A DNA stretch of 64,000 nt from an uncultured delta proteobacterium (lineage in GTDB: Bacteria > Desulfobacterota > RBG-13-43-22). Location: positions 256,001 through 320,000 of the forward strand of contig CAWJJC010000022.1 of the NCBI GenBank assembly GCA_963843145.1, in the 5' to 3' direction. The position numbers and the translations under genes were made by a program. The first letter of the stretch is position 1, and every line of letters starts with the position of its first letter. Under the pieces are notes generated by a model. That model was not told where the DNA came from. It saw only the letters and a program-made list of their open reading frames with translations, and did not search any database. Of the stretch, positions 19,625 to 30,334 are shown piece after piece.

Positions 19625-19978
19625 TCACTCGGTAGCTGAACCGGCCTCCATATCCTGAAGGCGCTTTTTGATCCTATCCAACTCAGACTGCAAGGCTTCC
19701 GCCCGGCCTTTCAGCGACCCTTTTTCCAATTCCGGATCCGACCCTTCGAACGAAGCCCCCCCACCGGCGAAACGCCGCCAGGCCGGCAGACCCGCACCGA
19801 AGAACCAACGGCATAACCCTCGACCGCCGCTCCTCCCGCCGGGACCCAGGCTGTTGCTGAAAAAGCTACCCCAGCCCCCCTGATTAAATGCGGGCCTCCC
19901 GGAGCCGGCGCAATACCCGCCTCCCCGGCCGGTCATCGGCCCCATTCCCATGGGCCCTGTCCTGTCTCCTCTGGGCAT
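19625..19978 (-). CDS. DUF5320-like Gly/Arg-rich protein
   Basis: MPRGDRTGPMGMGPMTGRGGGYC start, C-terminal coiled coil. Confidence 0.85.
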   Translation of the reverse strand: MPRGDRTGPMGMGPMTGRGGGYCAGSGRPAFNQGGWGSFFSNSLGPGGRSGGRGLCRWFFGAGLPAWRRFAGGGASFEGSDPELEKGSLKGRAEALQSELDRIKKRLQDMEAGSATE

Positions 19979-20037
19979 GATCGAACCTCCTTTCCGGTGG
20001 TTGAATTTCTGTTTGAGTATAGATTAGAAAACATTGA

Positions 20038-20283
20038 TTACCAGTTGAACCAACGCCGACGGCTTCCCAGGCCTGAAAGACTACCCCGGCCTCGACCCAA
20101 GCCCAGACCAAACCAACCCAGAAAACCGCTACCGGCTTTCCGTTGAAAAGAACCCGGTTGTCCAAAATCGCCGTTTAATTTCCGGCCCAGAAGGCCCTTC
20201 GAAGAACCGCTAGTGCAGGGTCCGGCGCCCCGGCCGGTCATGGAACCTTGCCCCAACGGTCCCGTTTTATCACCACGAGGCAT
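20038..20283 (-). CDS. DUF5320-like Gly/Arg-rich protein
   Basis: MPRGDKTGPLGQGSMTGRGAGPC from ATG 20283. Confidence 0.75.
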   Translation of the reverse strand: MPRGDKTGPLGQGSMTGRGAGPCTSGSSKGLLGRKLNGDFGQPGSFQRKAGSGFLGWFGLGLGRGRGSLSGLGSRRRWFNW

Positions 20284-20288
20284 ACAAA

Positions 20289-20705
20289 TCACCCCCTTTC
20301 CATTTTTTTCCATTTCCGCATCTCCGGGTTCCGGTTGATCAGCCGGCGGCAGCGGGTTGGCCGGCCCCTGGGAACCCAGCCGGGCATTCGAAAGCAGGGT
20401 CGATGCAGCGATCCACACAAAAAGGCCCGGAGGACCACCTCCAGGTCGCCGCAAATAAACCCGATGACCCGGACCCCGGCCGCCTCCAGGGCTGTCTCCA
20501 GAGGGGTCGAAACCGCTCCGCAGATCAGGGTTTGCGTCCCTAAGCCGGTTACCTCTTTGGCCCGGTGGAAGGGATCATGGTGGTTCAGGGTTATTTTTTC
20601 CCGCTGGACTTCCTGCCCTCCCGTGCACTGAATCAGGTAGACGTTATCCGATACGTCAAACACCGGAGCTATCCTCCCCTGCCAATGAGCCACCGCGACT
20701 TTCAT
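20289..20705 (-). CDS. NifB/NifX-family (FeMo-co-binding/ORP-like) protein
   Basis: MKVAVAHWQGRIAPVFD...LICGAVS...FRMPG. Confidence 0.82.
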   Translation of the reverse strand: MKVAVAHWQGRIAPVFDVSDNVYLIQCTGGQEVQREKITLNHHDPFHRAKEVTGLGTQTLICGAVSTPLETALEAAGVRVIGFICGDLEVVLRAFLCGSLHRPCFRMPGWVPRGRPTRCRRLINRNPEMRKWKKMERG

Positions 20706-20718
20706 AAATCCTTTCAAA

Positions 20719-20734
20719 TGCAATCCGGGGGCCA
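20719..20734 (-). promoter_or_regulatory. sigma54 -24/-12 promoter candidate
   Basis: TGGCCCCCGGATTGCA with correct spacing; divergent from a sigma54 activator; very close to the start codon. Confidence 0.6.
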
Positions 20735-20884
20735 AGGCCCGGTGATTAAATAGTTGACTAAAACCGGTAGGTTATGAAATATTTCCCTTGTAGCATTGAC
20801 AATAATCATTCAAAATACTATTATATTTAAGATAAAAGATTTTATTTTGCACGATTAAAAGTGGTAGTAGGGATAGGCTTGGGG

Positions 20885-22246
20885 ATGAAACTGGAAGAGG
20901 AAATAGGTCTTCGAGACGTTATCCTGGACTCCATCAACGAAGGGGTGTTCACGGTGGGTCCCGACTGGCGAATTACAGCCTTTAACCGGGCCGCGGAACG
21001 GATAACCGGCGTGTCCCGGAGGGAGGCCCTCGGCCGTTCCTGTTCCGATGTGTTTCATGCCGACATCTGTGAAAAGGATTGTGCCCTCAAGCGAACCTTC
21101 ACCACCGGCCAGCCGATTGTGAATGCCACCGCTGGTATCATCAACAACCGGGGACAACGGGTGCCGATCCGTATCGGCACCGCCATCTTAGAAAACAGCG
21201 TCGGAGAGGTCATCGGGGGCGTGGAAACCTTTCAGGACCTAAGCCAAGTCGAGGAGCTGCAAAAAGAATTGCTTAACCGGCATTCGTTTGAGGACATCAT
21301 CGGACGAAGCCCGGCCATGATGCAGTTGTTCGAGGTGGTCCCCCAGATTGCCGAGAGCAACAGTACGGTGCTGATTGAGGGCCCCAGCGGCACCGGGAAA
21401 GAACTATTCGCCAAGGCTATTCACAATCGGTCTCCCCGCCGGAAAAAGCGTTTCCTGGCCTTGAACTGCGCGGCCCTGCCGGACACCCTGCTGGAAAGCG
21501 AACTGTTTGGACACAAGGCCGGGGCCTTTACCGACGCCAAACGGGAAAAGGTGGGCCGCTTTGTCCTGGCCAACGGGGGGACCCTGTTCCTGGATGAAAT
21601 CGGCGATATCTCGCCGGCCATGCAGGTACGCCTGCTGCGGGTGCTCCAGGAACGCCAGGTCGAGCCTTTAGGGGGTCTCGAGCCTGTACCGGTGGATGTC
21701 CGGGTCGTGGCCGCCACCAATCAGGATCTGGCCGGGCTCATTCAGGCCGGCCGGTTTCGCGAGGATCTCTATTACCGCCTGCATGTCATACATCTGAAGC
21801 TGCCGCCCCTGAAGGAACGGCGGGAAGACATCCCGCTTCTGGTGGATCATCTGGTGGGCAAGTTCAACCGTCTGCAGGGGAAGCAGATTGCCGGCGTTTC
21901 CCAGGAGGCCATGGCCCGGCTGCTGGAGTATGATTATCCGGGCAATATCCGGGAGCTGGAAAACATTATCGAGCAGGCTTTTGTGCTCTGCCGCGGCGGG
22001 TTGATCGAGATGGCCCATCTGCCTCCTGAAATGCGTCCGCCCGCTGATTCCGCCGGGGAAACCTTCGGCCCGATGAGCCTGGAGGCCATGGAAAAGCGGC
22101 TCATCCTGGAAACCCTTTGGCGTTGTTCGGGAAACCGGAAACAGGCCTCCCGGGAATTAGGCATCGATGTGAGTTCCCTCTACCGAAAAATAAAGGCCTT
22201 GCAGTTGGAGGTGCCGGAAATGGACGGCCGCAGCCGTAAAAAGTGA
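20885..22246 (+). CDS. PAS sigma54-dependent activator (OrpR-like)
   Basis: Cys-rich PAS (CSDVFHADICEKDC), GPSGTGKE, GAFTDA, HTH; divergent from NifX/DUF5320 genes. Confidence 0.92.
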   Translation: MKLEEEIGLRDVILDSINEGVFTVGPDWRITAFNRAAERITGVSRREALGRSCSDVFHADICEKDCALKRTFTTGQPIVNATAGIINNRGQRVPIRIGTAILENSVGEVIGGVETFQDLSQVEELQKELLNRHSFEDIIGRSPAMMQLFEVVPQIAESNSTVLIEGPSGTGKELFAKAIHNRSPRRKKRFLALNCAALPDTLLESELFGHKAGAFTDAKREKVGRFVLANGGTLFLDEIGDISPAMQVRLLRVLQERQVEPLGGLEPVPVDVRVVAATNQDLAGLIQAGRFREDLYYRLHVIHLKLPPLKERREDIPLLVDHLVGKFNRLQGKQIAGVSQEAMARLLEYDYPGNIRELENIIEQAFVLCRGGLIEMAHLPPEMRPPADSAGETFGPMSLEAMEKRLILETLWRCSGNRKQASRELGIDVSSLYRKIKALQLEVPEMDGRSRKK

Positions 22247-22532
22247 AACCGACCGGGGCCGCCCACCGGCTTTTAGAAAAAGACCCAACCCAGGAACGGG
22301 TAGAAAAATTTGTCATCCCCGAAGGAGGATCGATCAAGATTTAAGTCAGGGGGATATTCCCCACCCCTTTTCCCTTGATCTCCCCGAACTCTGGAAATTA
22401 ATCCAAGATTTCATGCAGGAAGCGGTTCTCTTCACAGAATCGGATTCACGTCCTCCCTCCGGTGTCCCTACCTCCTAAGGATCAGGTATTAACAGTCTTA
22501 TAATAGAACCGACTATCCCCTGGCCTTCCTAT

Positions 22533-22618
22533 CGTCATTCCCGCAGCGATTTTGGGCGACAATCTAGTCCCTTCCTTGTGGGATGCTGGATCCCCGATTA
22601 AAACACTCGGGGATGACG
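22533..22618. repeat. REP/MITE-like palindromic element
   Basis: cgtcattcccg ... cggggatgacg terminal inverted repeat with internal hairpin tccccga-ttaaaacac-tcgggga. Confidence 0.55.
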
Positions 22619-22819
22619 GTCGGTGTATGTACGGACCATTGTGAGACCCTTAACAAGTCTCCTTATCCTCTCCTTTTTTCTATCCTTGACCCACCAGGGG
22701 ACATATTTTATACTCTTCCCAAACCAGTGGTGGGATTCTTTGGAATGAATTTATCACTTTTCCCTTCAGGGGCTGGCCTTGTCGCCTCAGTCCCTGGAAG
22801 TGGCTGAAATACAATAATT

Positions 22820-24718
22820 ATGACCGAAAACACCGAAAAAATGGGCCAGGGCATCGCTACCTCCGAGAAAAAAGTCCATTCCCTCCGGCGGGGAGCCCAA
22901 TCCCGTGTGCCCCTCAAAGCGGCGATCATAGGCGGCGGAAAGGCCTGCGAGGATCTGCTGACGCTGCTCAGCGACGATCGGCTGACCCGGCTGAAAATGG
23001 AAATCCTGGGCGTGTCCGACCCCAATCCCGAATCCCCCGGCCTGGTACGGGCCAGGGAGATGGGGTTATTCACGACCGGGGACTTCTCCGAACTTTATGC
23101 CCTTCCCGGTTTGAATTTGCTTATCGAGTTGACCGGCTCTCTGGCGGTCCGGGAGCATGTCATTCGGACCATCCCTCTGGAGGTCAGTTTCATCGACCAC
23201 CGCGGTGCCCGGCTGCTGTGGGATCTGATTCAGATGGAAATCGAAAAACAGGCACTGCAGGTGGAGTCGGAGAACAAGCTCCGGCAGTTCCTGGAGTCGG
23301 CCCACGACGTCATTATCATTAAAGACCTGGAAGGTCGGTACCTGTACGTCAATCCGGCCGGAAGCCGGTCCACGGGTTTATCCCGGGAACAGGTCATCGG
23401 CCATACGGATTTTGAGCTTTTCCCTGAACCCCAGGCCAGGGCCATGTATGAGAACCATCAGGAGGTGGTCAGGGAGCAGAAGACCCGATTCTCCAAAGAT
23501 CGGATGCATATAGCCGGCGAAGTCCGCTACTACGATACGGTGCGCTTCCCGATTTTTAATGAGCAGGGTGGGATGGATTCCCTGGCCATCATCTCCAGGG
23601 ATGTGACGGAAGAGGTGGCCCTTCAGGAGGAGCTGCGCCGGAACAAGGAATACCTGGAGAATATTCTCTCCAACTCGTATGACTTGATCATAACCACCGA
23701 TACAGAGGGTCGTATCGTGACTGTCAACCCGGCGGCTGAGCGGATGCTGGGCTACACCCGGGACGAGATGATCGGCGTCCCGATGGAAAATTTCTGGAAA
23801 GAGCCTGGGATTCGCCGGGAAATCATGAGACAGGTTGAAGCCAGCGGCGCGGTGAATAACACGACGGGCGCTCTGGTCGCCAAGGACGGGCAGGTGGTGG
23901 AAATCGGCCTTTCCCTCTCCCAACTACGGGATGTTCAGGGAAAGGTCCTGGGCACCGTTGGGATCAGCAAGGACATCTCCGAGGAAAACCGTCTGCGCAA
24001 ACAACTGCTGGAGCAGGAGCGGCTGGCCGCCGTGGGCCAGACGGTGGCCAGCGTTACCCATTGCATGAAAAACGTCCTGAACGGACTGAAGGGCGGCGCC
24101 TATATGGTGGAGGTGGGTCTGAAACGGAATGACTCCAAGCTAACCCGTGAGGGTTGGGAGACAGTACAGGAAGGCGTCGACCGGATCAGCAAGATCAGCC
24201 TGAACCTGCTGAGCTATTGCCGGGAGCGAAGACCCGTTCCTGTTCCCGTCAGCCCTTATCAACTGGCCCGGGACGCCGTGGAGATGGTGCAGAAATCCGC
24301 CCAGCAACAGGGTGTTGCGCTCACCTGCCAGGGGGGAGAAGATGAGATTGCTCACTTGGATCCGGATGCCGTCGGTCGCGCTCTGCTGAATCTGGTAACC
24401 AATGCCGTGGAGGCCTGCAAAGAAAAAACCTACGGCCCGGGGGAAAGCCCCCGGGTGGACGTTCGGATTGAGCGGGCCGACCGGGTGATCCGCTTTATCG
24501 TGAGCGATAACGGCATCGGGATGGGCCCGGAGGTCCGGGAACAACTTTTCAAACGGTTTTTCAGCACCAAGAGCTATAAAGGGACCGGCCTCGGGCTTAG
24601 TACCACCGCCAAGATTATTGAGGAGCACGGCGGCAAGATTTCGGTCGAATCCGAGCCCGGAAAGGGCTCCCGGTTTACCGTGTCGATCCCCTCCCAACTC
24701 CAACGATCGAACGAGTAG
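22820..24718 (+). CDS. Cytoplasmic histidine kinase with N-terminal Rossmann-like domain and two PAS domains
   Basis: AAIIGGGKA; two PAS; H-box VTHCMKN; NLVTNA, DNGIG, GTGLGL. Confidence 0.92.
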   Translation: MTENTEKMGQGIATSEKKVHSLRRGAQSRVPLKAAIIGGGKACEDLLTLLSDDRLTRLKMEILGVSDPNPESPGLVRAREMGLFTTGDFSELYALPGLNLLIELTGSLAVREHVIRTIPLEVSFIDHRGARLLWDLIQMEIEKQALQVESENKLRQFLESAHDVIIIKDLEGRYLYVNPAGSRSTGLSREQVIGHTDFELFPEPQARAMYENHQEVVREQKTRFSKDRMHIAGEVRYYDTVRFPIFNEQGGMDSLAIISRDVTEEVALQEELRRNKEYLENILSNSYDLIITTDTEGRIVTVNPAAERMLGYTRDEMIGVPMENFWKEPGIRREIMRQVEASGAVNNTTGALVAKDGQVVEIGLSLSQLRDVQGKVLGTVGISKDISEENRLRKQLLEQERLAAVGQTVASVTHCMKNVLNGLKGGAYMVEVGLKRNDSKLTREGWETVQEGVDRISKISLNLLSYCRERRPVPVPVSPYQLARDAVEMVQKSAQQQGVALTCQGGEDEIAHLDPDAVGRALLNLVTNAVEACKEKTYGPGESPRVDVRIERADRVIRFIVSDNGIGMGPEVREQLFKRFFSTKSYKGTGLGLSTTAKIIEEHGGKISVESEPGKGSRFTVSIPSQLQRSNE

Positions 24719-24834
24719 GCCTGTGGGCTTTAAGCGGAGGATACGAGGCTTCGACTGCGAAAACACCCTTGTTTTTTTGAGGCGGTTAATCTATATACTA
24801 CTAGTCGATAACAAGGCCCTCAAAGGAGAAGACC

Positions 24835-25650
24835 ATGAAACCTGTGAATGTATTGATTATTGATGATGACCAGAGCAATGTCCGTTATTTGACCACCATC
24901 CTGGAGGAGAACGGCTTTACGGACATCCAGGCGGCCTTTGACGGAGTGGAAGGGTTGGAGAAGGTGGAGACGGTCAAGCCCGGGCTGATCCTCCTCGACC
25001 TGCGCATGCCCAAGAAAAACGGTATTTTAGTTTTTAACGACCTCAGAGGGAACGAGCGGTTCAAGGACATCCCGGTCATCATCCTCACCGGAGAAGGCGG
25101 TTTCCTGAAGCACCTGGCGGAATTACGTCAGTTTCGCGAGGACGGCCCGGTTTTGGATGCTAAGACTTCGGAGGAGGTGCTGGGGCGCTTCATTGCCTCG
25201 CAGCCGGACGGATTTCTGGAAAAGCCGGTTGAGCCGGATCGGCTGATGGCCATCATCAGGAAATTGCTGGCCACCCTGGAAGAGGTCAAAGAAGCCCGGC
25301 AACAAGATGTCAATGCGTTACGGGACCGGAAGCTTTCGGGGGGAGTACAATTCAAAGGAGTTCTGTTCGACAGCAGTGAGCGGAGCCGAAACGCCCTGGC
25401 CGCCACCGCCATCATGTTGGCGGCCTCGGATTTCAAATTGCCGGAGGGGTTTGCCTGGCGCTCGGTGGACAACCGGAACATCATCCTGGACCGAAAGGAA
25501 CTCCTGGCGTTTCAGGCGGCTATGACCGGCTGGGTCTTCCGGACTTACCAGGCCTCCTGGGACCATAAGGCGGCGATTGAAGCCCTGTCCAGCATCGAAG
25601 AGGCCGAAAAGTACGACCTGGAGCAGGGATGGCCCGGTAAGGTGCTTTAG
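24835..25650 (+). CDS. Response regulator receiver fused to a DUF4376-like (phage tail-associated) domain
   Basis: IIDDD, LLDLRMP, LTG, EKP; C-terminal RD...GGVQFKGVLFDS.ERSR...WRSVDN...SWDHKAAIEA pattern. Confidence 0.8.
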   Translation: MKPVNVLIIDDDQSNVRYLTTILEENGFTDIQAAFDGVEGLEKVETVKPGLILLDLRMPKKNGILVFNDLRGNERFKDIPVIILTGEGGFLKHLAELRQFREDGPVLDAKTSEEVLGRFIASQPDGFLEKPVEPDRLMAIIRKLLATLEEVKEARQQDVNALRDRKLSGGVQFKGVLFDSSERSRNALAATAIMLAASDFKLPEGFAWRSVDNRNIILDRKELLAFQAAMTGWVFRTYQASWDHKAAIEALSSIEEAEKYDLEQGWPGKVL

Positions 25651-25704
25651 AACCACCTAGAACGCGAGCGGATCAGCCCGTTTCCTTCTTCCTCCCCCCA
25701 GTAC

Positions 25705-26715
25705 GATTCCGGCAAGTGCCTGCACTATTACTTCTACTTCATCGACAAAACGTTCGGCCTAGGCTATCTCCGCGTTCCCACCTGGGCGCCCCTCCGACTC
25801 CAGTTCTATATGAACGGCCATAACTGGCTGGCGACGAAATTGACCAAGCGGAAGATTCCTTTTGTGCTGCGGGAGAACGCCTTCCTCTCTATTGCCGATT
25901 TTGCCAAAGCGCAGGAACTGTCCGATAGCATCAAGGTCTCGGATTTACACCGCGCCTTAGATGGCTTCGCCCAAAAATACTGCCCGGTCTTTCAAGAGTA
26001 CGGCCTCACCTATCATTGGAGCACCATGCAGGTGGAATATGCCACCGACCTTGTTTTCAAGAGACAAGCCGACCTTCGGGTCTTGTACGATCAGATCGTC
26101 CGAACCGCCATTCACTCCGTGAAACCGGAGAATATCGCCACCTTCCTGGGCCGAAAGCTGCACGCCAACTACCAGGGCGAACTGGGCAATAACTTCAACA
26201 CCCGCATTCAGGGAACACGGATCAAGCACCATATGGGCGCTTCTTCCATCAAGATGTACGACAAGTTCGGAATCATCCTCCGGATCGAGACCACATCCAA
26301 CGACGTCTCGGAGTTCAAGCATTACCGGGAAGTCCAGTTACGGACCGGAGGCACCGTTCACAAAACCGCGCCCCTGAAGAAGAACATCTACAGCCTTTTC
26401 GAACTCACGGCCATCTTCAAAGCCTCGAATCGCCGTTACCTGGAATTTATCTCCACCTTCAATGACCAGAGCCGAGGGATCAAAAACCTCGAAAGGATTT
26501 CTAAACCCGTGGAAACCGACGACCGTTCCTATAAGGGGTTCAATTTTTTCAGTCCCGATGATCTCAAACTATTTGAAATCCTGGCGCGTGGCGAATTCAA
26601 TATCAACGGACTTCAGAACAAGTCACTTCGCCATCACCTCCCGGAAATAAATACCGCCGCGATGACGAGGGTCCTGAAACGGCTCCATATTCACGGCCTG
26701 ATTCGTCCTAAATAG
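25705..26715 (+). mobile_element. Truncated putative transposase/replication-initiator-like gene (family often annotated 'MarR-family')
   Basis: GKCLHYYFYFID..FGL.YLRVPTWAP..LQFYMNGH lies in frame upstream of the ATG; SIKMYDK..ILRIETT motif; ends abruptly in an HTH-like segment (LKRLHIHGLIRPK*). Confidence 0.6.
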
Positions 26716-26739
26716 GGAACCGCTTGTTGATAACAAGGC

Positions 26740-27663
26740 TTATTCATGAGCACATCCACAGGTGGAGGATAGTTTGCAGGAAAAGGTTTTGTCCGCTAAA
26801 GACCACCACAGTTCGTTGATGCGCAGGTGAGGGACTTCAGCGGCGATTTCCGGGTGGTATCCTTGAGGGTAGGAAAGGTCCGCCAGGGGGGATTCATCCC
26901 CCAAAAAGGCCTCAACCCGCTGCTGAATAGGCAAATCTTTTTCTAAGGACTGGTCGGGAGGGGCAAAGCAGACCAGCACGGCCAGTCCCCAAATATCTTC
27001 GGCCTTCCGCTCTAGCAGCAACCCGTCTTTTTCCAAAGTATGTTCAAAACCTGGGGAGCGGGCCAGTACGATTCGTACTGGACTCTGTTTTCGATAATAA
27101 GCGTAAAGGCATAAAAGGCGATCAAAAAAGGGAACGCCGAGGTCCCAGCCGGGTACATCCCTGATCAATCGATCCGGGTTAGCGGCACCGTTTGCTATTG
27201 CCTCCGAAAGTCCATTCTGGCTTCCAGAGGGGGACCGGATGCGGAGGCTGGTCAGGCTTTCAAATACAAACGCGGACGTTCCTTGTCTTTGGTCAAGGAG
27301 CCATTCCAGGACCCCGAGGTGAAAAAGGTTATCCGGGACCCGGCGGATGGACTGAAACCTGGGCGTGCCGGTGTGATCAAAGTGCTCGCTCAGTATTTGT
27401 TCCCTTTCTTCAAGGGAGAAGCGCGAAAAGACCTCCTGATGGGGATAGGGAAAAAGTCTCACGGAAAAAAGGCCCCGGTTAAATTCCGAACCGTTTTCTG
27501 CCAAGACTTCGGTCCGCTCCAGTTGCAGGGAGAAAGGGCCAGGTCCTTGGGCCAACCAGAAATACCAGTTCGGTTGATCCTTCCAGACCTGGCTTACCCC
27601 CATCAGGCCTAAGGCTTCCTTCAATTCTTCGGCCCAGGAAGCCATAAGGAGCATTCCTTCCAT
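26740..27663 (-). CDS. Hypothetical protein
   Basis: 307-aa ORF, last gene of the minus-strand operon; C-terminal CKLSSTCGCAHE. Confidence 0.7.
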   Translation of the reverse strand: MEGMLLMASWAEELKEALGLMGVSQVWKDQPNWYFWLAQGPGPFSLQLERTEVLAENGSEFNRGLFSVRLFPYPHQEVFSRFSLEEREQILSEHFDHTGTPRFQSIRRVPDNLFHLGVLEWLLDQRQGTSAFVFESLTSLRIRSPSGSQNGLSEAIANGAANPDRLIRDVPGWDLGVPFFDRLLCLYAYYRKQSPVRIVLARSPGFEHTLEKDGLLLERKAEDIWGLAVLVCFAPPDQSLEKDLPIQQRVEAFLGDESPLADLSYPQGYHPEIAAEVPHLRINELWWSLADKTFSCKLSSTCGCAHE

Positions 27664-27689
27664 TTCGCTCCGAAAGGCAGTTTCTAAGT

Positions 27690-27965
27690 CTATGAGAAAT
27701 CTCCCTTCTTCAAAAAGAGTTCCTTGACGATGGCTGATTTTTCCCGCCCGGTGGTCTCGATGCCCTCCAGGCGGGCCGTCTCCATCAGGATGTCATCAGG
27801 GTAGGCCAGGGTCAAGGAGGCGCTAGATTCCTCGGATTCGAAGAAGCATTCAAAATCAGCCCTCCGGTTGACCTCATTGATCCCTTCCTGATAAGCCGTG
27901 ATAGTTTCCCCCAGCAACTGCCTCAGATATCGGGGAAGGAAAAGCCTTTTACTTTGATCGATCAT
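27690..27965 (-). CDS. Small hypothetical protein
   Basis: RBS AAGGAGG, operon context. Confidence 0.7.
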   Translation of the reverse strand: MIDQSKRLFLPRYLRQLLGETITAYQEGINEVNRRADFECFFESEESSASLTLAYPDDILMETARLEGIETTGREKSAIVKELFLKKGDFS

Positions 27966-27981
27966 AGGAACTGGACCTCCT

Positions 27982-29202
27982 TTAAAGGGCCTTTCTTCTT
28001 AAGGGCCAGGTCCCCCCAAAATCTCGATGAACCAGGATAATGGAAAGGAAGAGGATGGTCCAAACCAACGGTGAGTCGTCGGGTTGTCCCACCCCGGGCA
28101 CTTTTCCGAGAAAAAAAGTGGTGGCCGGGGAATAGTAGAAAAGGTAGATCAGGATTCCGCCGGCCAGACTGATGGCGGTGCGGATAATCCCTCTAGCCCA
28201 CAGCCCGGAAAGCCGAGGCGCATTATTAAAATAAGTGGACCAAATAAACGCGGCTAAAATAAAGAAGCCGGCAATTTCGCCGGCATGAATATAGCGGAAA
28301 TTGGGACCATCCGTGTACTGGCCGCCCTCAAAGGCCTCTCCCCAGGGGATATTCATGACCTTTAACAGGATCACGAACAGGATCACCCCCAGGATAAAAG
28401 TTCCGAGGAAGGTAACCAGGCCCTTGGCCAAGGTCCCCTGGCCGTTCCTTTCCAGCCGGCTCCAGGGCCGCCCTTCCCATAAAAGATCCGAAATCACGAT
28501 CCAGAAAAGGATACACAGGATCAGCCCCAGATTAAAAAAGGCACTCCCGGTTTTGGCAAAGGAGATCCACCAGGGTTGAACACCGGCTTTGGATTGTGCC
28601 GGATAAAACAGGTAGCAGACGTGGGGATGGAACAAGAGGCTATAGGTGATGATTGAAAAAAGGAGCACCGTAACCAGGCGGGACCAGGCCAAAGTGCCCC
28701 GGTTGGCATTCAGCCAGGGCCAGTCGCCGAAACCGACCCGCCAAACAAGGGCCCACCAAAGAAAGGCCCCAAAAAAATAAACAATGGCCAGGGAAGCGAT
28801 TTCACGGGCATTATAGGCTTCGGCCCCTATACCCCCGCCGGCCACAATCGACTTGGGGCTGAAGTAAGCCACCCCAAATTTTCCGATAAATCCCCAGAAA
28901 AAAACATAGACCAGGAAAAGCATCAAAAAAATGGAGACGGCGGTCAGCAGAATACCCCGGAAAAAGGTAGTTTTCCCCGGCAGGTGAAAGGGGTAGTAGT
29001 CGGCTACGGCGGTCATAAGGATGATGGCCGAAAACCAGGTTACCACGAGGGAAAAGCCATACATCGGGGTGTAGAGTTTAAACCAGCTTTTATTGGGATC
29101 CATAAAAATGAACCAGAGAAGCCAGACCACACAGAAGACCACCGCTAGGCACACCAGTCCAAGTATATAGTTGAACGGTTGGGGTTTTTCCCCTGTTTCC
29201 AT
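27982..29202 (-). CDS. Polytopic membrane protein of unknown function (putative transporter/redox anchor)
   Basis: About ten or more hydrophobic helices; RBS AGGAGG before ATG 29202. Confidence 0.82.
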   Translation of the reverse strand: METGEKPQPFNYILGLVCLAVVFCVVWLLWFIFMDPNKSWFKLYTPMYGFSLVVTWFSAIILMTAVADYYPFHLPGKTTFFRGILLTAVSIFLMLFLVYVFFWGFIGKFGVAYFSPKSIVAGGGIGAEAYNAREIASLAIVYFFGAFLWWALVWRVGFGDWPWLNANRGTLAWSRLVTVLLFSIITYSLLFHPHVCYLFYPAQSKAGVQPWWISFAKTGSAFFNLGLILCILFWIVISDLLWEGRPWSRLERNGQGTLAKGLVTFLGTFILGVILFVILLKVMNIPWGEAFEGGQYTDGPNFRYIHAGEIAGFFILAAFIWSTYFNNAPRLSGLWARGIIRTAISLAGGILIYLFYYSPATTFFLGKVPGVGQPDDSPLVWTILFLSIILVHRDFGGTWPLRRKAL

Positions 29203-29239
29203 AGACTTTCCCCTCCTTTCGCGATTGTCCGGCTGGGGT

Positions 29240-30334
29240 CTAAAAAACAACCTGGTCGCCATTGGTCAAAAATACATTGCTGGCCTTGGCCACCGTAGAG
29301 TACTTCTTGTAAGACTTGTACTTGTTCGTGCCTTTGACGATGGGTATGCCCTCGGCCGCCGCCTTTTCCCCCCAGATCCATCCCGTGCAATGATTACAGG
29401 CGACCTTTTCCAATTTAAAGGTCTTAACCCCCCGGATGATATCGTCAAACTTGGGGTCCCAGGTTTCAAACAGGGTGATATGGAGGCCCCCGTAACAGCC
29501 ATAGGGATCATATCCTTCGAAATTCTTCTTGGCGTAAGAAAACAAGGATAGGATTCCCGGGTGGCAGCAGCCGGTTACGGTGAGAATGCCTTTGTCCTTG
29601 ACATTGAAATAGAGGACATTCTCTCCGCGGACCCGGAGCAGGATGGGGACATCAAAATTTTTAATCGCCACACCCTCCATGAGTTTATAAACACCCGTGC
29701 CTTTTTCCCCTTCCGGATCACAAAGCACCAGCTTTCCGGTGTGGGGGTGGTCGTTCTTACAGATGGGCACCGCTTTCCCTTCCTTGTTCTTGGCCACGTG
29801 GTGGGCCTTTTGCTTGAGCAGGGCCATGTCTTCGGGATAATAGGTTTTGGGGGCATACATGGTAATATCGGGTTTGTGCTTCATAGTGGATTCAATGCCC
29901 CAGAAGTGGTCCAGGTGCCAGTGGGAGAGCATCATAAACTCGATTTCCCCGCTCTTCAGCATGGCCGGGATCTTGTTCATTTGGAAGATATAGTCCATCC
30001 ATTCGGTGTTCCATCCGGTATCCATGAGAAATTTTCTCTCTTTACCCTCCAGCGTGGTCACGGTGATCAGGGCCGAGTAGCCCCCGGCATTGTCCCACGT
30101 CCAGGGGATGATGTACTGATTGGTCATGCCGCCGCCATAGTCCATCATATCTTTTTTAAAGATATCGTTATTAAACCAGCTTGTTTCGGTGAGGACGTCC
30201 ACCTTGACGGACTTCACCTGGCCGAGGTTCAATTTGTTGGCCGCTTTGGCCTGGCCGGGCAGGCCCAGGGACCCCGCCGCCGACAAAGCGGCCCCCGTGG
30301 CCATCATGGATTTCAGGAAATTGCGTCTTTCCAT
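29240..30334 (-). CDS. Tat-exported metallo-beta-lactamase-fold protein (COG1237-like)
   Basis: MERRNFLK twin-Arg signal; MDTG, SHWHLDH, GCCHPG, GGLH, HCTG motifs. Confidence 0.88.
   Translation of the reverse strand: MERRNFLKSMMATGAALSAAGSLGLPGQAKAANKLNLGQVKSVKVDVLTETSWFNNDIFKKDMMDYGGGMTNQYIIPWTWDNAGGYSALITVTTLEGKERKFLMDTGWNTEWMDYIFQMNKIPAMLKSGEIEFMMLSHWHLDHFWGIESTMKHKPDITMYAPKTYYPEDMALLKQKAHHVAKNKEGKAVPICKNDHPHTGKLVLCDPEGEKGTGVYKLMEGVAIKNFDVPILLRVRGENVLYFNVKDKGILTVTGCCHPGILSLFSYAKKNFEGYDPYGCYGGLHITLFETWDPKFDDIIRGVKTFKLEKVACNHCTGWIWGEKAAAEGIPIVKGTNKYKSYKKYSTVAKASNVFLTNGDQVVF

Follow-up and report, generated by a model that had tools for sequence, protein, structure and literature searches.

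A response regulator of Desulfobacterota with a C-terminal DUF4376 domain, conserved next to a PAS histidine kinase

DUF4376 is a domain that has been discussed so far only in the chaperones of phage tail fibres. The protein gp27 of phage V22, which with its relatives has DUF4376 at the C-terminus, was described as an intermolecular tail-fibre chaperone of a new type (PMC7289586), and it is essential for the maturation of the tail fibre (PMC7289586; PMC10579305). AlphaFold-Multimer models present the DUF4376 chaperones as homotrimers with a helical core and beta-hairpin 'tentacles', similar to intramolecular chaperone domains; the modelled contact with the fibre is through N-terminal beta strands of the chaperone, and the helical body is proposed, again from modelling, to self-associate (PMC10579305). 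The fibre of the CJIE1 prophage likewise needs the DUF4376 gene downstream of it (PMC7882524). Among the papers listed in our literature search, DUF4376 is met in phages, in phage-derived tools and in the annotation of prophages and integrative and conjugative elements only. Here we consider a bacterial gene, 24835..25650, in a stretch of 64,000 nucleotides (hereafter the window; contig CAWJJC010000022.1, positions 256,001 to 320,000) from an uncultured delta proteobacterium, in which DUF4376 is fused to the receiver of a response regulator.

We read this regulator and the sensor histidine kinase encoded upstream of it as a conserved two-component system of two genes, belonging to a lineage of Desulfobacterota. 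We put at roughly 45% the probability that the output of the regulator is protein-protein interaction under the control of the kinase, by means of a phage chaperone domain that was co-opted to serve the cell. This is the best reading because the receiver is competent by its sequence, the kinase is present at every intact locus, the regulator has no DNA-binding or catalytic domain, and the junction between the two domains is rigid and conserved. An earlier note on this DNA, made from its letters alone, had been aware of no description of such a fusion, and we also found none in the literature searched, subscription-only papers and supplements being outside the search. The features of the pair are as follows.

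24835..25650, plus strand: response regulator gene, 271 amino acids plus stop; receiver with an insertion, fused to DUF4376
24835..25098, plus strand: receiver core, beta1-beta4 (residues 1-88; Pfam Response_reg at 6-88), holding D10, D11, D55 and T85
24997-24999, plus strand: codon of the phospho-acceptor D55, within the receiver core
25099..25206, plus strand: family-specific insertion in the alpha4 region (residues 89-124), consisting of a helix, a low-confidence loop and a helix; highly conserved
25207..25272, plus strand: receiver beta5-alpha5 (residues 125-146) with the switch residue F127 and K130-P131
25273..25647, plus strand: DUF4376 domain (residues 147-271), consisting of a helix, a hairpin, a helix, a hairpin, a long helix and a short helix
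22820..24718, plus strand: sensor histidine kinase, 632 amino acids; N-terminal Rossmann-like region, two PAS domains, H-box, HATPase_c

The receiver is assigned by a Pfam match to Response_reg (PF00072) at residues 6-88 (E 1.5e-21; 77 bits, the cut-off being 30.2), which covers only positions 1-80 of the 111 in the profile, because an insertion of approximately 36 residues follows beta4. The insertion is situated between beta4 (…IPVIILT85) and beta5 (F127-L-E-K130-P131), before the K-P motif, and the AlphaFold model places it between the same two strands. In alignment A1 of 37 family members, D10, D11, D55, T85, F127, K130 and P131 are invariant, and judging from these residues the receiver is phosphorylation-competent. 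The insertion (consensus GEGGFLKHLAELRxFHED...PTEEVLxRFI) is conserved nearly as well as the receiver core. In the full-length model (predicted local distance difference test, pLDDT, 84.3; predicted template modelling score, pTM, 0.59) the strands at residues 6-9, 31-34, 51-55, 81-85 and 126-129, with helices between them, make the (beta-alpha)5 fold, while the insertion contributes helices 89-97 and 109-121, pLDDT being 52-59 between these two. By Foldseek, the receiver matches those of CheY, Spo0F, RR468 and PleD with E from 1e-9 to 4e-11, the template modelling score (target) being 0.8-0.9 for the first three.

The C-terminal domain is DUF4376 (PF14301; Pfam match at residues 150-258, E 3.6e-19, 69.6 bits, the cut-off being 25), matched over profile positions 1-102 of 106. 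The motif string RD..GG..F.G..FDS..SR..W..DN..SW..K.AI.A is found in residues 163-250, and the C-terminal half of the protein matches the tail and tail-fibre families phrog_2837 (2e-17), phrog_1807, phrog_1141 and phrog_10508 of PHROGs. In the ESM Atlas, all 30 of the 30 feature matches are DUF4376-only clusters. Modelled in isolation (pLDDT 97.6, pTM 0.88), the domain is predicted to form a helix, a hairpin, a helix, a hairpin, a 30-residue helix and a short helix; a predicted phage DUF4376 protein from BFVD superposes on it with a root-mean-square deviation of 1.4 over 114 columns at 31% identity, and the BFVD DUF4376 proteins overall do so with 1.4-3 over 114-134 columns. Seven signature residues, G175, P203, F206, R209, N213, W242 and W266, are conserved in both the regulator and the chaperone-type clades, whereas D181, N187 and G199 are conserved in the chaperone type only. 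The earlier note had described, at 24835..25650, an intact receiver with an insertion before the K-P motif and an in-frame C-terminal DUF4376-like domain with this motif pattern; both Pfam and the 37-member alignment confirm it at these coordinates, well past what chance would give. The same note took DUF4376 to be normally a domain of phage tail-fibre modules, in agreement with the PHROGs tail families, with the chaperone papers (PMC7289586, PMC10579305) and with the prophage copies beside tail-fibre genes described below.

The junction between the two domains is rigid and specifically conserved. Strand beta5 (126-129) and helix alpha5 (134-145) of the model are followed almost directly by the first DUF4376 helix (148-168), the Pfam match begins 4 residues past the end of alpha5, and there is no linker between them. 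Nine positions of the domain are conserved in the regulators only, among them T147 and E150 at the junction. No DNA-binding or enzymatic domain was found in the regulator by Pfam. A search of Rfam over 22000-28000 gave nothing at E<=0.1, and scans for promoters and terminators gave no more matches than expected from shuffled sequence. The receiver/DUF4376 junction is bridged by one metagenome contig (25238-25454), and the same fusion is present in independent assemblies; a contig from an RNA library at 25118-25268 is compatible with transcription without showing it. Of the words sampled from the stretch, no sequencing run contained more than a share of 0.23.

The kinase gene ends 117 bases upstream of the regulator. 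Its product has two PAS domains (PAS_4/PAS_9) and HATPase_c (E 4.9e-27) by Pfam, and no membrane segment is called in it. By tblastn, a kinase orthologue lies directly upstream and on the same strand in all 12 of the 12 intact fusion loci that are distinct from one another. They are that of the window, L001 (counted once together with L084 and L102, to which it is identical), L002-L006, and the loci of genomes G003, G007, G002, G156 and G324. Residues 32-128 of the kinase (22913-23203) have no Pfam call but contain a GxGxxA-type motif, AAIIGGGKAC, and weakly match the NAD-binding part of acetylating acetaldehyde dehydrogenase (E 3e-5). This N-terminal region is conserved in the kinases of the fusion systems and of the systems with a receiver-only regulator alike, and its sequence suggests a nucleotide- or redox-sensing input.

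The surroundings of the pair are not those of a phage. From 5.5 to 41.5 kb, 26 open reading frames were scanned; their products are proteins of redox reactions and metabolism, two sigma-54 activators, a further PAS kinase and proteins of the Fe-S/ParA type, and no phage gene was found among them. Six phage hallmark families, namely sheath, baseplate J, tail collar, Peptidase_S74, HK97 capsid and Terminase_6N, are unmatched in the whole 5.35-Mb genome (97.9% complete). The remark of the earlier note that there are no other phage genes is thus borne out for the 26 open reading frames and, as regards these six families, genome-wide. The genome contains exactly one DUF4376, that of the gene 24835..25650.

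The fusion is not a singleton. A protein search gave 465 matches among 5.8 billion clustered proteins, and 73 of the 120 clusters listed carry both PF00072 and PF14301 in a protein of approximately 271 amino acids, with 51-100% identity to the window protein. In five more full-length clusters, at 44-52% identity, the C-terminal domain is too divergent for a PF14301 call. Where the source is named, it is Deltaproteobacteria, Desulfatiglandaceae, Desulfatiglandales or Candidatus Desulfacyla, and members are already annotated in the databases as 'response regulator' or as 'DUF4376 domain-containing protein'. Longer fused forms were not seen, PF14301 being present in none of the 120 listed proteins of 476-2000 amino acids, and a word-index search with residues 146-271 returned only the family itself (17 matches).

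The full fusion is present in six named genome records (L001-L006, 60-81% identity) and, among 41 related genomes, in G000, G003, G004 and G007, with G002 carrying it in two pieces. Of 401 genomes sampled evenly from the phylum, six carry the regulator type and belong to two taxonomic families, f1 (G000, G002, G003) and f71 (G156, G324, and a degraded remnant in G299), and three others (G220, G352, G362) carry chaperone-type copies of DUF4376. In the class of the window, DUF4376 is found in 5 of 21 genomes, one copy each and always as the regulator gene; none of the 21 has the chaperone type.

Several members are damaged. In G002 (locus L096, 5663-8495) the frame changes both in the regulator, at about residue 120-123, and in the kinase, at about residue 68-100, and cluster P0022 has a frame change inside DUF4376; assembly error is the likelier cause in both. 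In G299 (locus L109, 1372-3008, minus strand) the system is degraded: the N-terminal and PAS part of the kinase (residues ~1-341) is followed directly by sequence that matches regulator residues 116-237, and the kinase core and the receiver core are missing.

The ratio of nonsynonymous to synonymous substitution rates (dN/dS, omega), a comparison also proposed in the earlier note, indicates purifying selection on the DUF4376 part of the gene. The Nei-Gojobori method was applied to ten fusion genes, giving 45 pairs, many of them saturated and one identical; in the seven unsaturated pairs with usable dS, omega is 0.015-0.19 in the receiver core, 0.05-0.12 in the insertion and 0.13-0.28 in the DUF4376 part. 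Thus, the C-terminal domain is kept by selection, although less tightly than the receiver.

As for the origin of the domain, an exhaustive HMMER search of 1.84 billion representatives with residues 146-271 gave 798 relatives (E<=0.001). Outside the family, the best of them are 35-46% identical and mostly 106-220 amino acids long, with the domain at the C-terminus; PF14301 is the sole Pfam domain in all 39 that were scanned with Pfam, and tail-related PHROGs are matched by all 12 of those scanned for them. In the maximum-likelihood tree, 37 regulator domains and three fragments are separated from 49 chaperone-type domains by one branch (100/98), a split present in 100% of 200 bootstrap trees, so one fusion event suffices to account for the regulator clade. 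The four chaperone-type copies found in the rest of the phylum are parts of prophage modules. Three of them, those of G352 and G362 included, come straight after a tail-fibre gene, and two of the three have an endolysin gene next to them as well; the fourth adjoins a minor head protein gene. The earlier note proposed a domesticated phage domain used in signalling. As a co-opted signalling output this is a fair reading, because the DUF4376 part is under purifying selection in a conserved two-component context that is not that of a phage; the direction of the transfer, from phage to cell, is likely, but the sole argument for it is that the chaperone-type group is far broader, the tree being unrooted.

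Under our reading, the soluble kinase, with its Rossmann-like region and two PAS domains, would sense an intracellular signal and phosphorylate the receiver at D55. The resulting change at the alpha4-beta5-alpha5 face, which bears the conserved extra helix pair, may then pass via alpha5 into the first helix of DUF4376. The latter, a domain of the type seen as the helical body in the tail-fibre chaperones of phages, would have been co-opted for self-association, for binding of a cellular partner, or for both. With DUF4376 as a protein-interaction output, the system would therefore act post-translationally, and not via DNA binding or catalysis. Phosphotransfer, the coupling via alpha5, the protein-binding output and the identity of the partner are all inferred.

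Several observations weigh against this reading. In the sequence and fold searches of the PDB, the domain has neither a solved structure nor a clear structural relative: for the isolated model, the best E of Foldseek against the PDB is 0.95 and the top Z of VIA-align is 7.1 (wide) and 7.2 (second look), all at the background level, and the sequence and profile searches gave nothing below E 0.16. Prefoldin-beta (Z 6.1-7.2), Skp (Z 5.0-5.2) and a fibre chain of cyanophage Pam3 (Z 6.5) recurred in the fold searches, without standing out. The complex prediction for three copies of residues 146-271 (alignment A2) scored 0.01, the mark being 0.42, and speaks neither for nor against self-association. 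The conserved polar residues R209, N213 and W242 could equally mark a ligand site. The genes downstream of the pair differ in every locus, and no conserved partner gene adjoins it. The receiver is more conserved than DUF4376, in both the 37-member alignment and omega, and in the most divergent members (P0075-P0079) several signature residues are lost together with the PF14301 call. Finally, regulators of the same kind exist that consist of the receiver only and are paired with homologous PAS kinases, in two gene arrangements.

These receiver-only proteins (148-156 amino acids, 49-58% identical), a sister lineage of the fusions, have the insertion and end right after alpha5. They are found in genomes labelled Desulfarculaceae and in many genomes of the window's own family. 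In the latter the receiver-only regulator precedes a shorter kinase (~522 amino acids), while in L007, L008 and G037 a longer kinase precedes the regulator. In the receiver tree, they form one clade (100/97). A distant outgroup puts two fusion sequences basally, yet the tree with all fusions in one clade is unrejected (p value of the approximately unbiased test, p-AU, 0.54), so that DUF4376 may have been either gained or lost. A receiver with this insertion can therefore signal without DUF4376, and since a whole clade does so with homologous kinases, the essential signalling may lie in the receiver and the insertion, DUF4376 having a modulating role.

Accordingly, the first alternative is an auxiliary receiver. 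Like a single-domain regulator, it would serve through the receiver and the conserved insertion, either as a phosphate sink or by allosterically modulating its own kinase or a sigma-54 activator nearby, with DUF4376 as an accessory scaffold or stabilising tail. The gene for such an activator is found in the window upstream of the kinase.

20861..22246, plus strand: PAS-AAA+-HTH sigma-54 activator (Sigma54_activat E 3.6e-70, Pfam), upstream of the kinase

This alternative would agree with the pairing of receiver-only relatives and homologous kinases, with the presence of both the fusion and the receiver-only gene in G004 and G007, and with the insertion as the most constrained segment (omega 0.05-0.12). 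The best NCBIfam match of the regulator is also to a DivK-like family, DVU0259 (NF045717), although at 73.4 bits it is below the cut-off of 160. As for the activator, its orthologue is kept upstream in L001 (89%) and L096 (97%), weaker sigma-54 activators lie near L003, L005, L009 and L094, and none is present within 6 kb in L002; it is possibly a member of the same circuit, but sigma-54 activators are common in these genomes and do not stand beside every locus. Furthermore, omega of 0.13-0.28 in the DUF4376 part, over a range of 44-100% identity, and the regulator-specific positions are hard to fit to a passive tail. We consider the auxiliary receiver unlikely.

The second alternative is that the ancestral activity is kept, and the regulator acts under kinase control as a chaperone or cap, its cellular client being trimeric or fibrous, such as an adhesin or the fibre of a tail-like particle encoded elsewhere. 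Tail-fibre maturation is the only DUF4376 role with experimental support (PMC7289586, PMC10579305), and the seven signature residues are retained, but the six phage hallmark families are not found in the genome, no fibre-like gene is conserved beside the pair, and the protein lacks the N-terminal region that lies against the fibre in the published models (PMC10579305). Such a role is quite improbable. A bolder form of it, to which we would give equally long odds, is that the domesticated chaperone body still recognises trimeric beta-structured fibres, and a cytoplasmic redox or metabolite signal switches a 'cap' that either blocks fibre assembly of infecting phages, as an anti-phage decoy gated by phosphorylation, or controls the maturation of a fibrous surface protein of the host.

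The third alternative, an anti-phage decoy or sensor, supposes that DUF4376 binds the fibres or chaperones of infecting phages and thereby sabotages their assembly or reports the infection. The domain is indeed homologous to the bodies of phage chaperones, and phages with DUF4376 chaperones do infect the phylum, as seen from the prophage copies in G220, G352 and G362. However, all 21 genomes of the class lack a chaperone-type DUF4376, the neighbouring genes are metabolic and regulatory ones, and a scan of the regulator, the kinase and seven neighbours with PADLOC-DB 2.0 gave no defence family beyond generic similarity: seven of the nine proteins have no match, the SduA model matches regulator residues 5-64 (2e-7), and AAA+/sigma-54 models match the upstream activator. 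Defence genes undergo patchy turnover, unlike the regulator and its kinase, a pair that has been kept stably in two taxonomic families. The earlier note had suggested that the domain binds phage tail proteins or acts as a decoy. This part of it is not supported, given the lack of defence matches and of a defence island, the stable, vertical-looking inheritance with the kinase, and the replacement by the receiver of the N-terminal beta strands that contact the fibre in the modelled chaperones (PMC10579305). Neither the decoy or anti-phage role nor the retained chaperone role has contextual support, and we regard the former as very unlikely.

The last alternative, an artefact of assembly or annotation or a decaying pseudogene fusion, would fit the frame changes in G002 and P0022 and the degraded remnant in G299, but may be practically dismissed given the intact 271-residue frame in 73 clusters from several sources, in six named records and in five further genomes, omega well below 1, and the frame change of G002 affecting the kinase gene too, which points to assembly errors there.

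Some other genes near the pair deserve mention. Immediately downstream (25705-26715) there is an open reading frame of 301 amino acids with no Pfam, NCBIfam or PADLOC match, which looks 5'-truncated, because its frame runs on upstream of the ATG to about 25705 without a start codon. The 40 nucleotides at 25704-25746 draw many unrelated metagenome contigs, with depth up to 279 in one run, and are therefore part of a very widespread and strongly conserved gene segment. Four consecutive open reading frames on the minus strand (26740-30334; 307, 91, 426 and 364 amino acids) have no Pfam family at the thresholds used; the product of the 426-residue frame looks multi-pass membrane by eye, and that of the 364-residue one has a weak twin-arginine signal and weak matches of the metallo-beta-lactamase fold in NCBIfam. 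On the other side, the minus strand at 19625-20735 encodes a DUF5320 protein and a 148-residue protein with a weak MrpORP-like C-terminal match; both genes lie upstream of the sigma-54 activator and are kept with it in L001 (65-77% identity).

Returning to the reading of DUF4376 as a protein-interaction output, this is the first cellular context found for the domain, and it would add a new type to the catalogue of response-regulator outputs. With its small size, its solubility and a kinase partner that is soluble too, the regulator should make the biochemistry of DUF4376 readily accessible, and the oligomeric state, partners and structure of the domain would help to explain the working of phage chaperones of this widespread class. 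Should fibre binding have been retained by the domain, this would be a new, signal-gated form of phage interference.

Among known response regulators, the closest in kind are the single-domain or protein-binding ones (CheY, DivK, the DVU0259 family), the output of which is likewise neither DNA binding nor, as far as seen, catalysis; RssB, an adaptor-type regulator, is protein-binding as well. Unlike CheY, DivK and the DVU0259 family, the window receiver has an extra helix pair and is then followed by a phage-type domain of 125 amino acids.

A DUF4376 chaperone and a receiver also occur as separate genes in phages. In the host-recognition module of phage V22 (L099, 24372-26198), the gene of the chaperone gp27 is followed at a distance of three genes by that of gp30, a CheY-like receiver that stands alone; such a pair is kept in phage A5, too (PMC10579305). 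We considered gp30 as a counterpart of the window receiver and rejected it: it is a canonical receiver (profile positions 2-111 of 111), only 23% identical, and the alignment has a gap of 22 residues where the window insertion lies.

Two further groups of phage chaperones should be compared. The structure of the phage Mu tail-fibre assembly protein U (TfaMu, Caudo_TAP) has reportedly been solved with its fibre. TfaMu is a functional analogue of the DUF4376 chaperones from another family, although one paper equates its conserved C-terminus with DUF4376 (PMC7882524). This equation is not supported, as TfaMu belongs to PF02413 (E 6.7e-37), has no DUF4376 match and reaches an hhalign probability of 0.3% when compared with the DUF4376 alignment. 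The window protein, in turn, has no Pfam match at E<=1 to either PF02413 (Caudo_TAP) or Peptidase_S74 (PF13884). The intramolecular chaperones of phages T5 (4UW8) and K1F (1V0E/3GW6) are trimerising helical caps with beta-hairpin tentacles, which the models of DUF4376 chaperones resemble (PMC10579305); for the DUF4376 model, these entries are not among the best 50 rows of either of the two VIA-align lists or of the Foldseek list.

The closest likeness of the C-terminal domain is to the chaperones V22 gp27, A5 gp9 and those of CJIE1-like prophages (Campylobacter), which have the same C-terminal Pfam family over approximately 110 residues. In gp27, DUF4376 is at residues 87-187 (E 3.2e-21), and gp27 aligns with residues 141-266 of the window protein at 24% identity; judging from the models, a helix-hairpin-helix-hairpin-helix body is common to the window domain and the phage DUF4376 chaperones. 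The phage proteins have a variable N-terminal part, are encoded directly after a tail-fibre gene and are needed for the activity of the fibre (PMC7289586, PMC10579305, PMC7882524), whereas in the window regulator, with no tail-fibre gene beside it, the N-terminal residues 1-146 are a receiver and the upstream neighbour is a histidine kinase.

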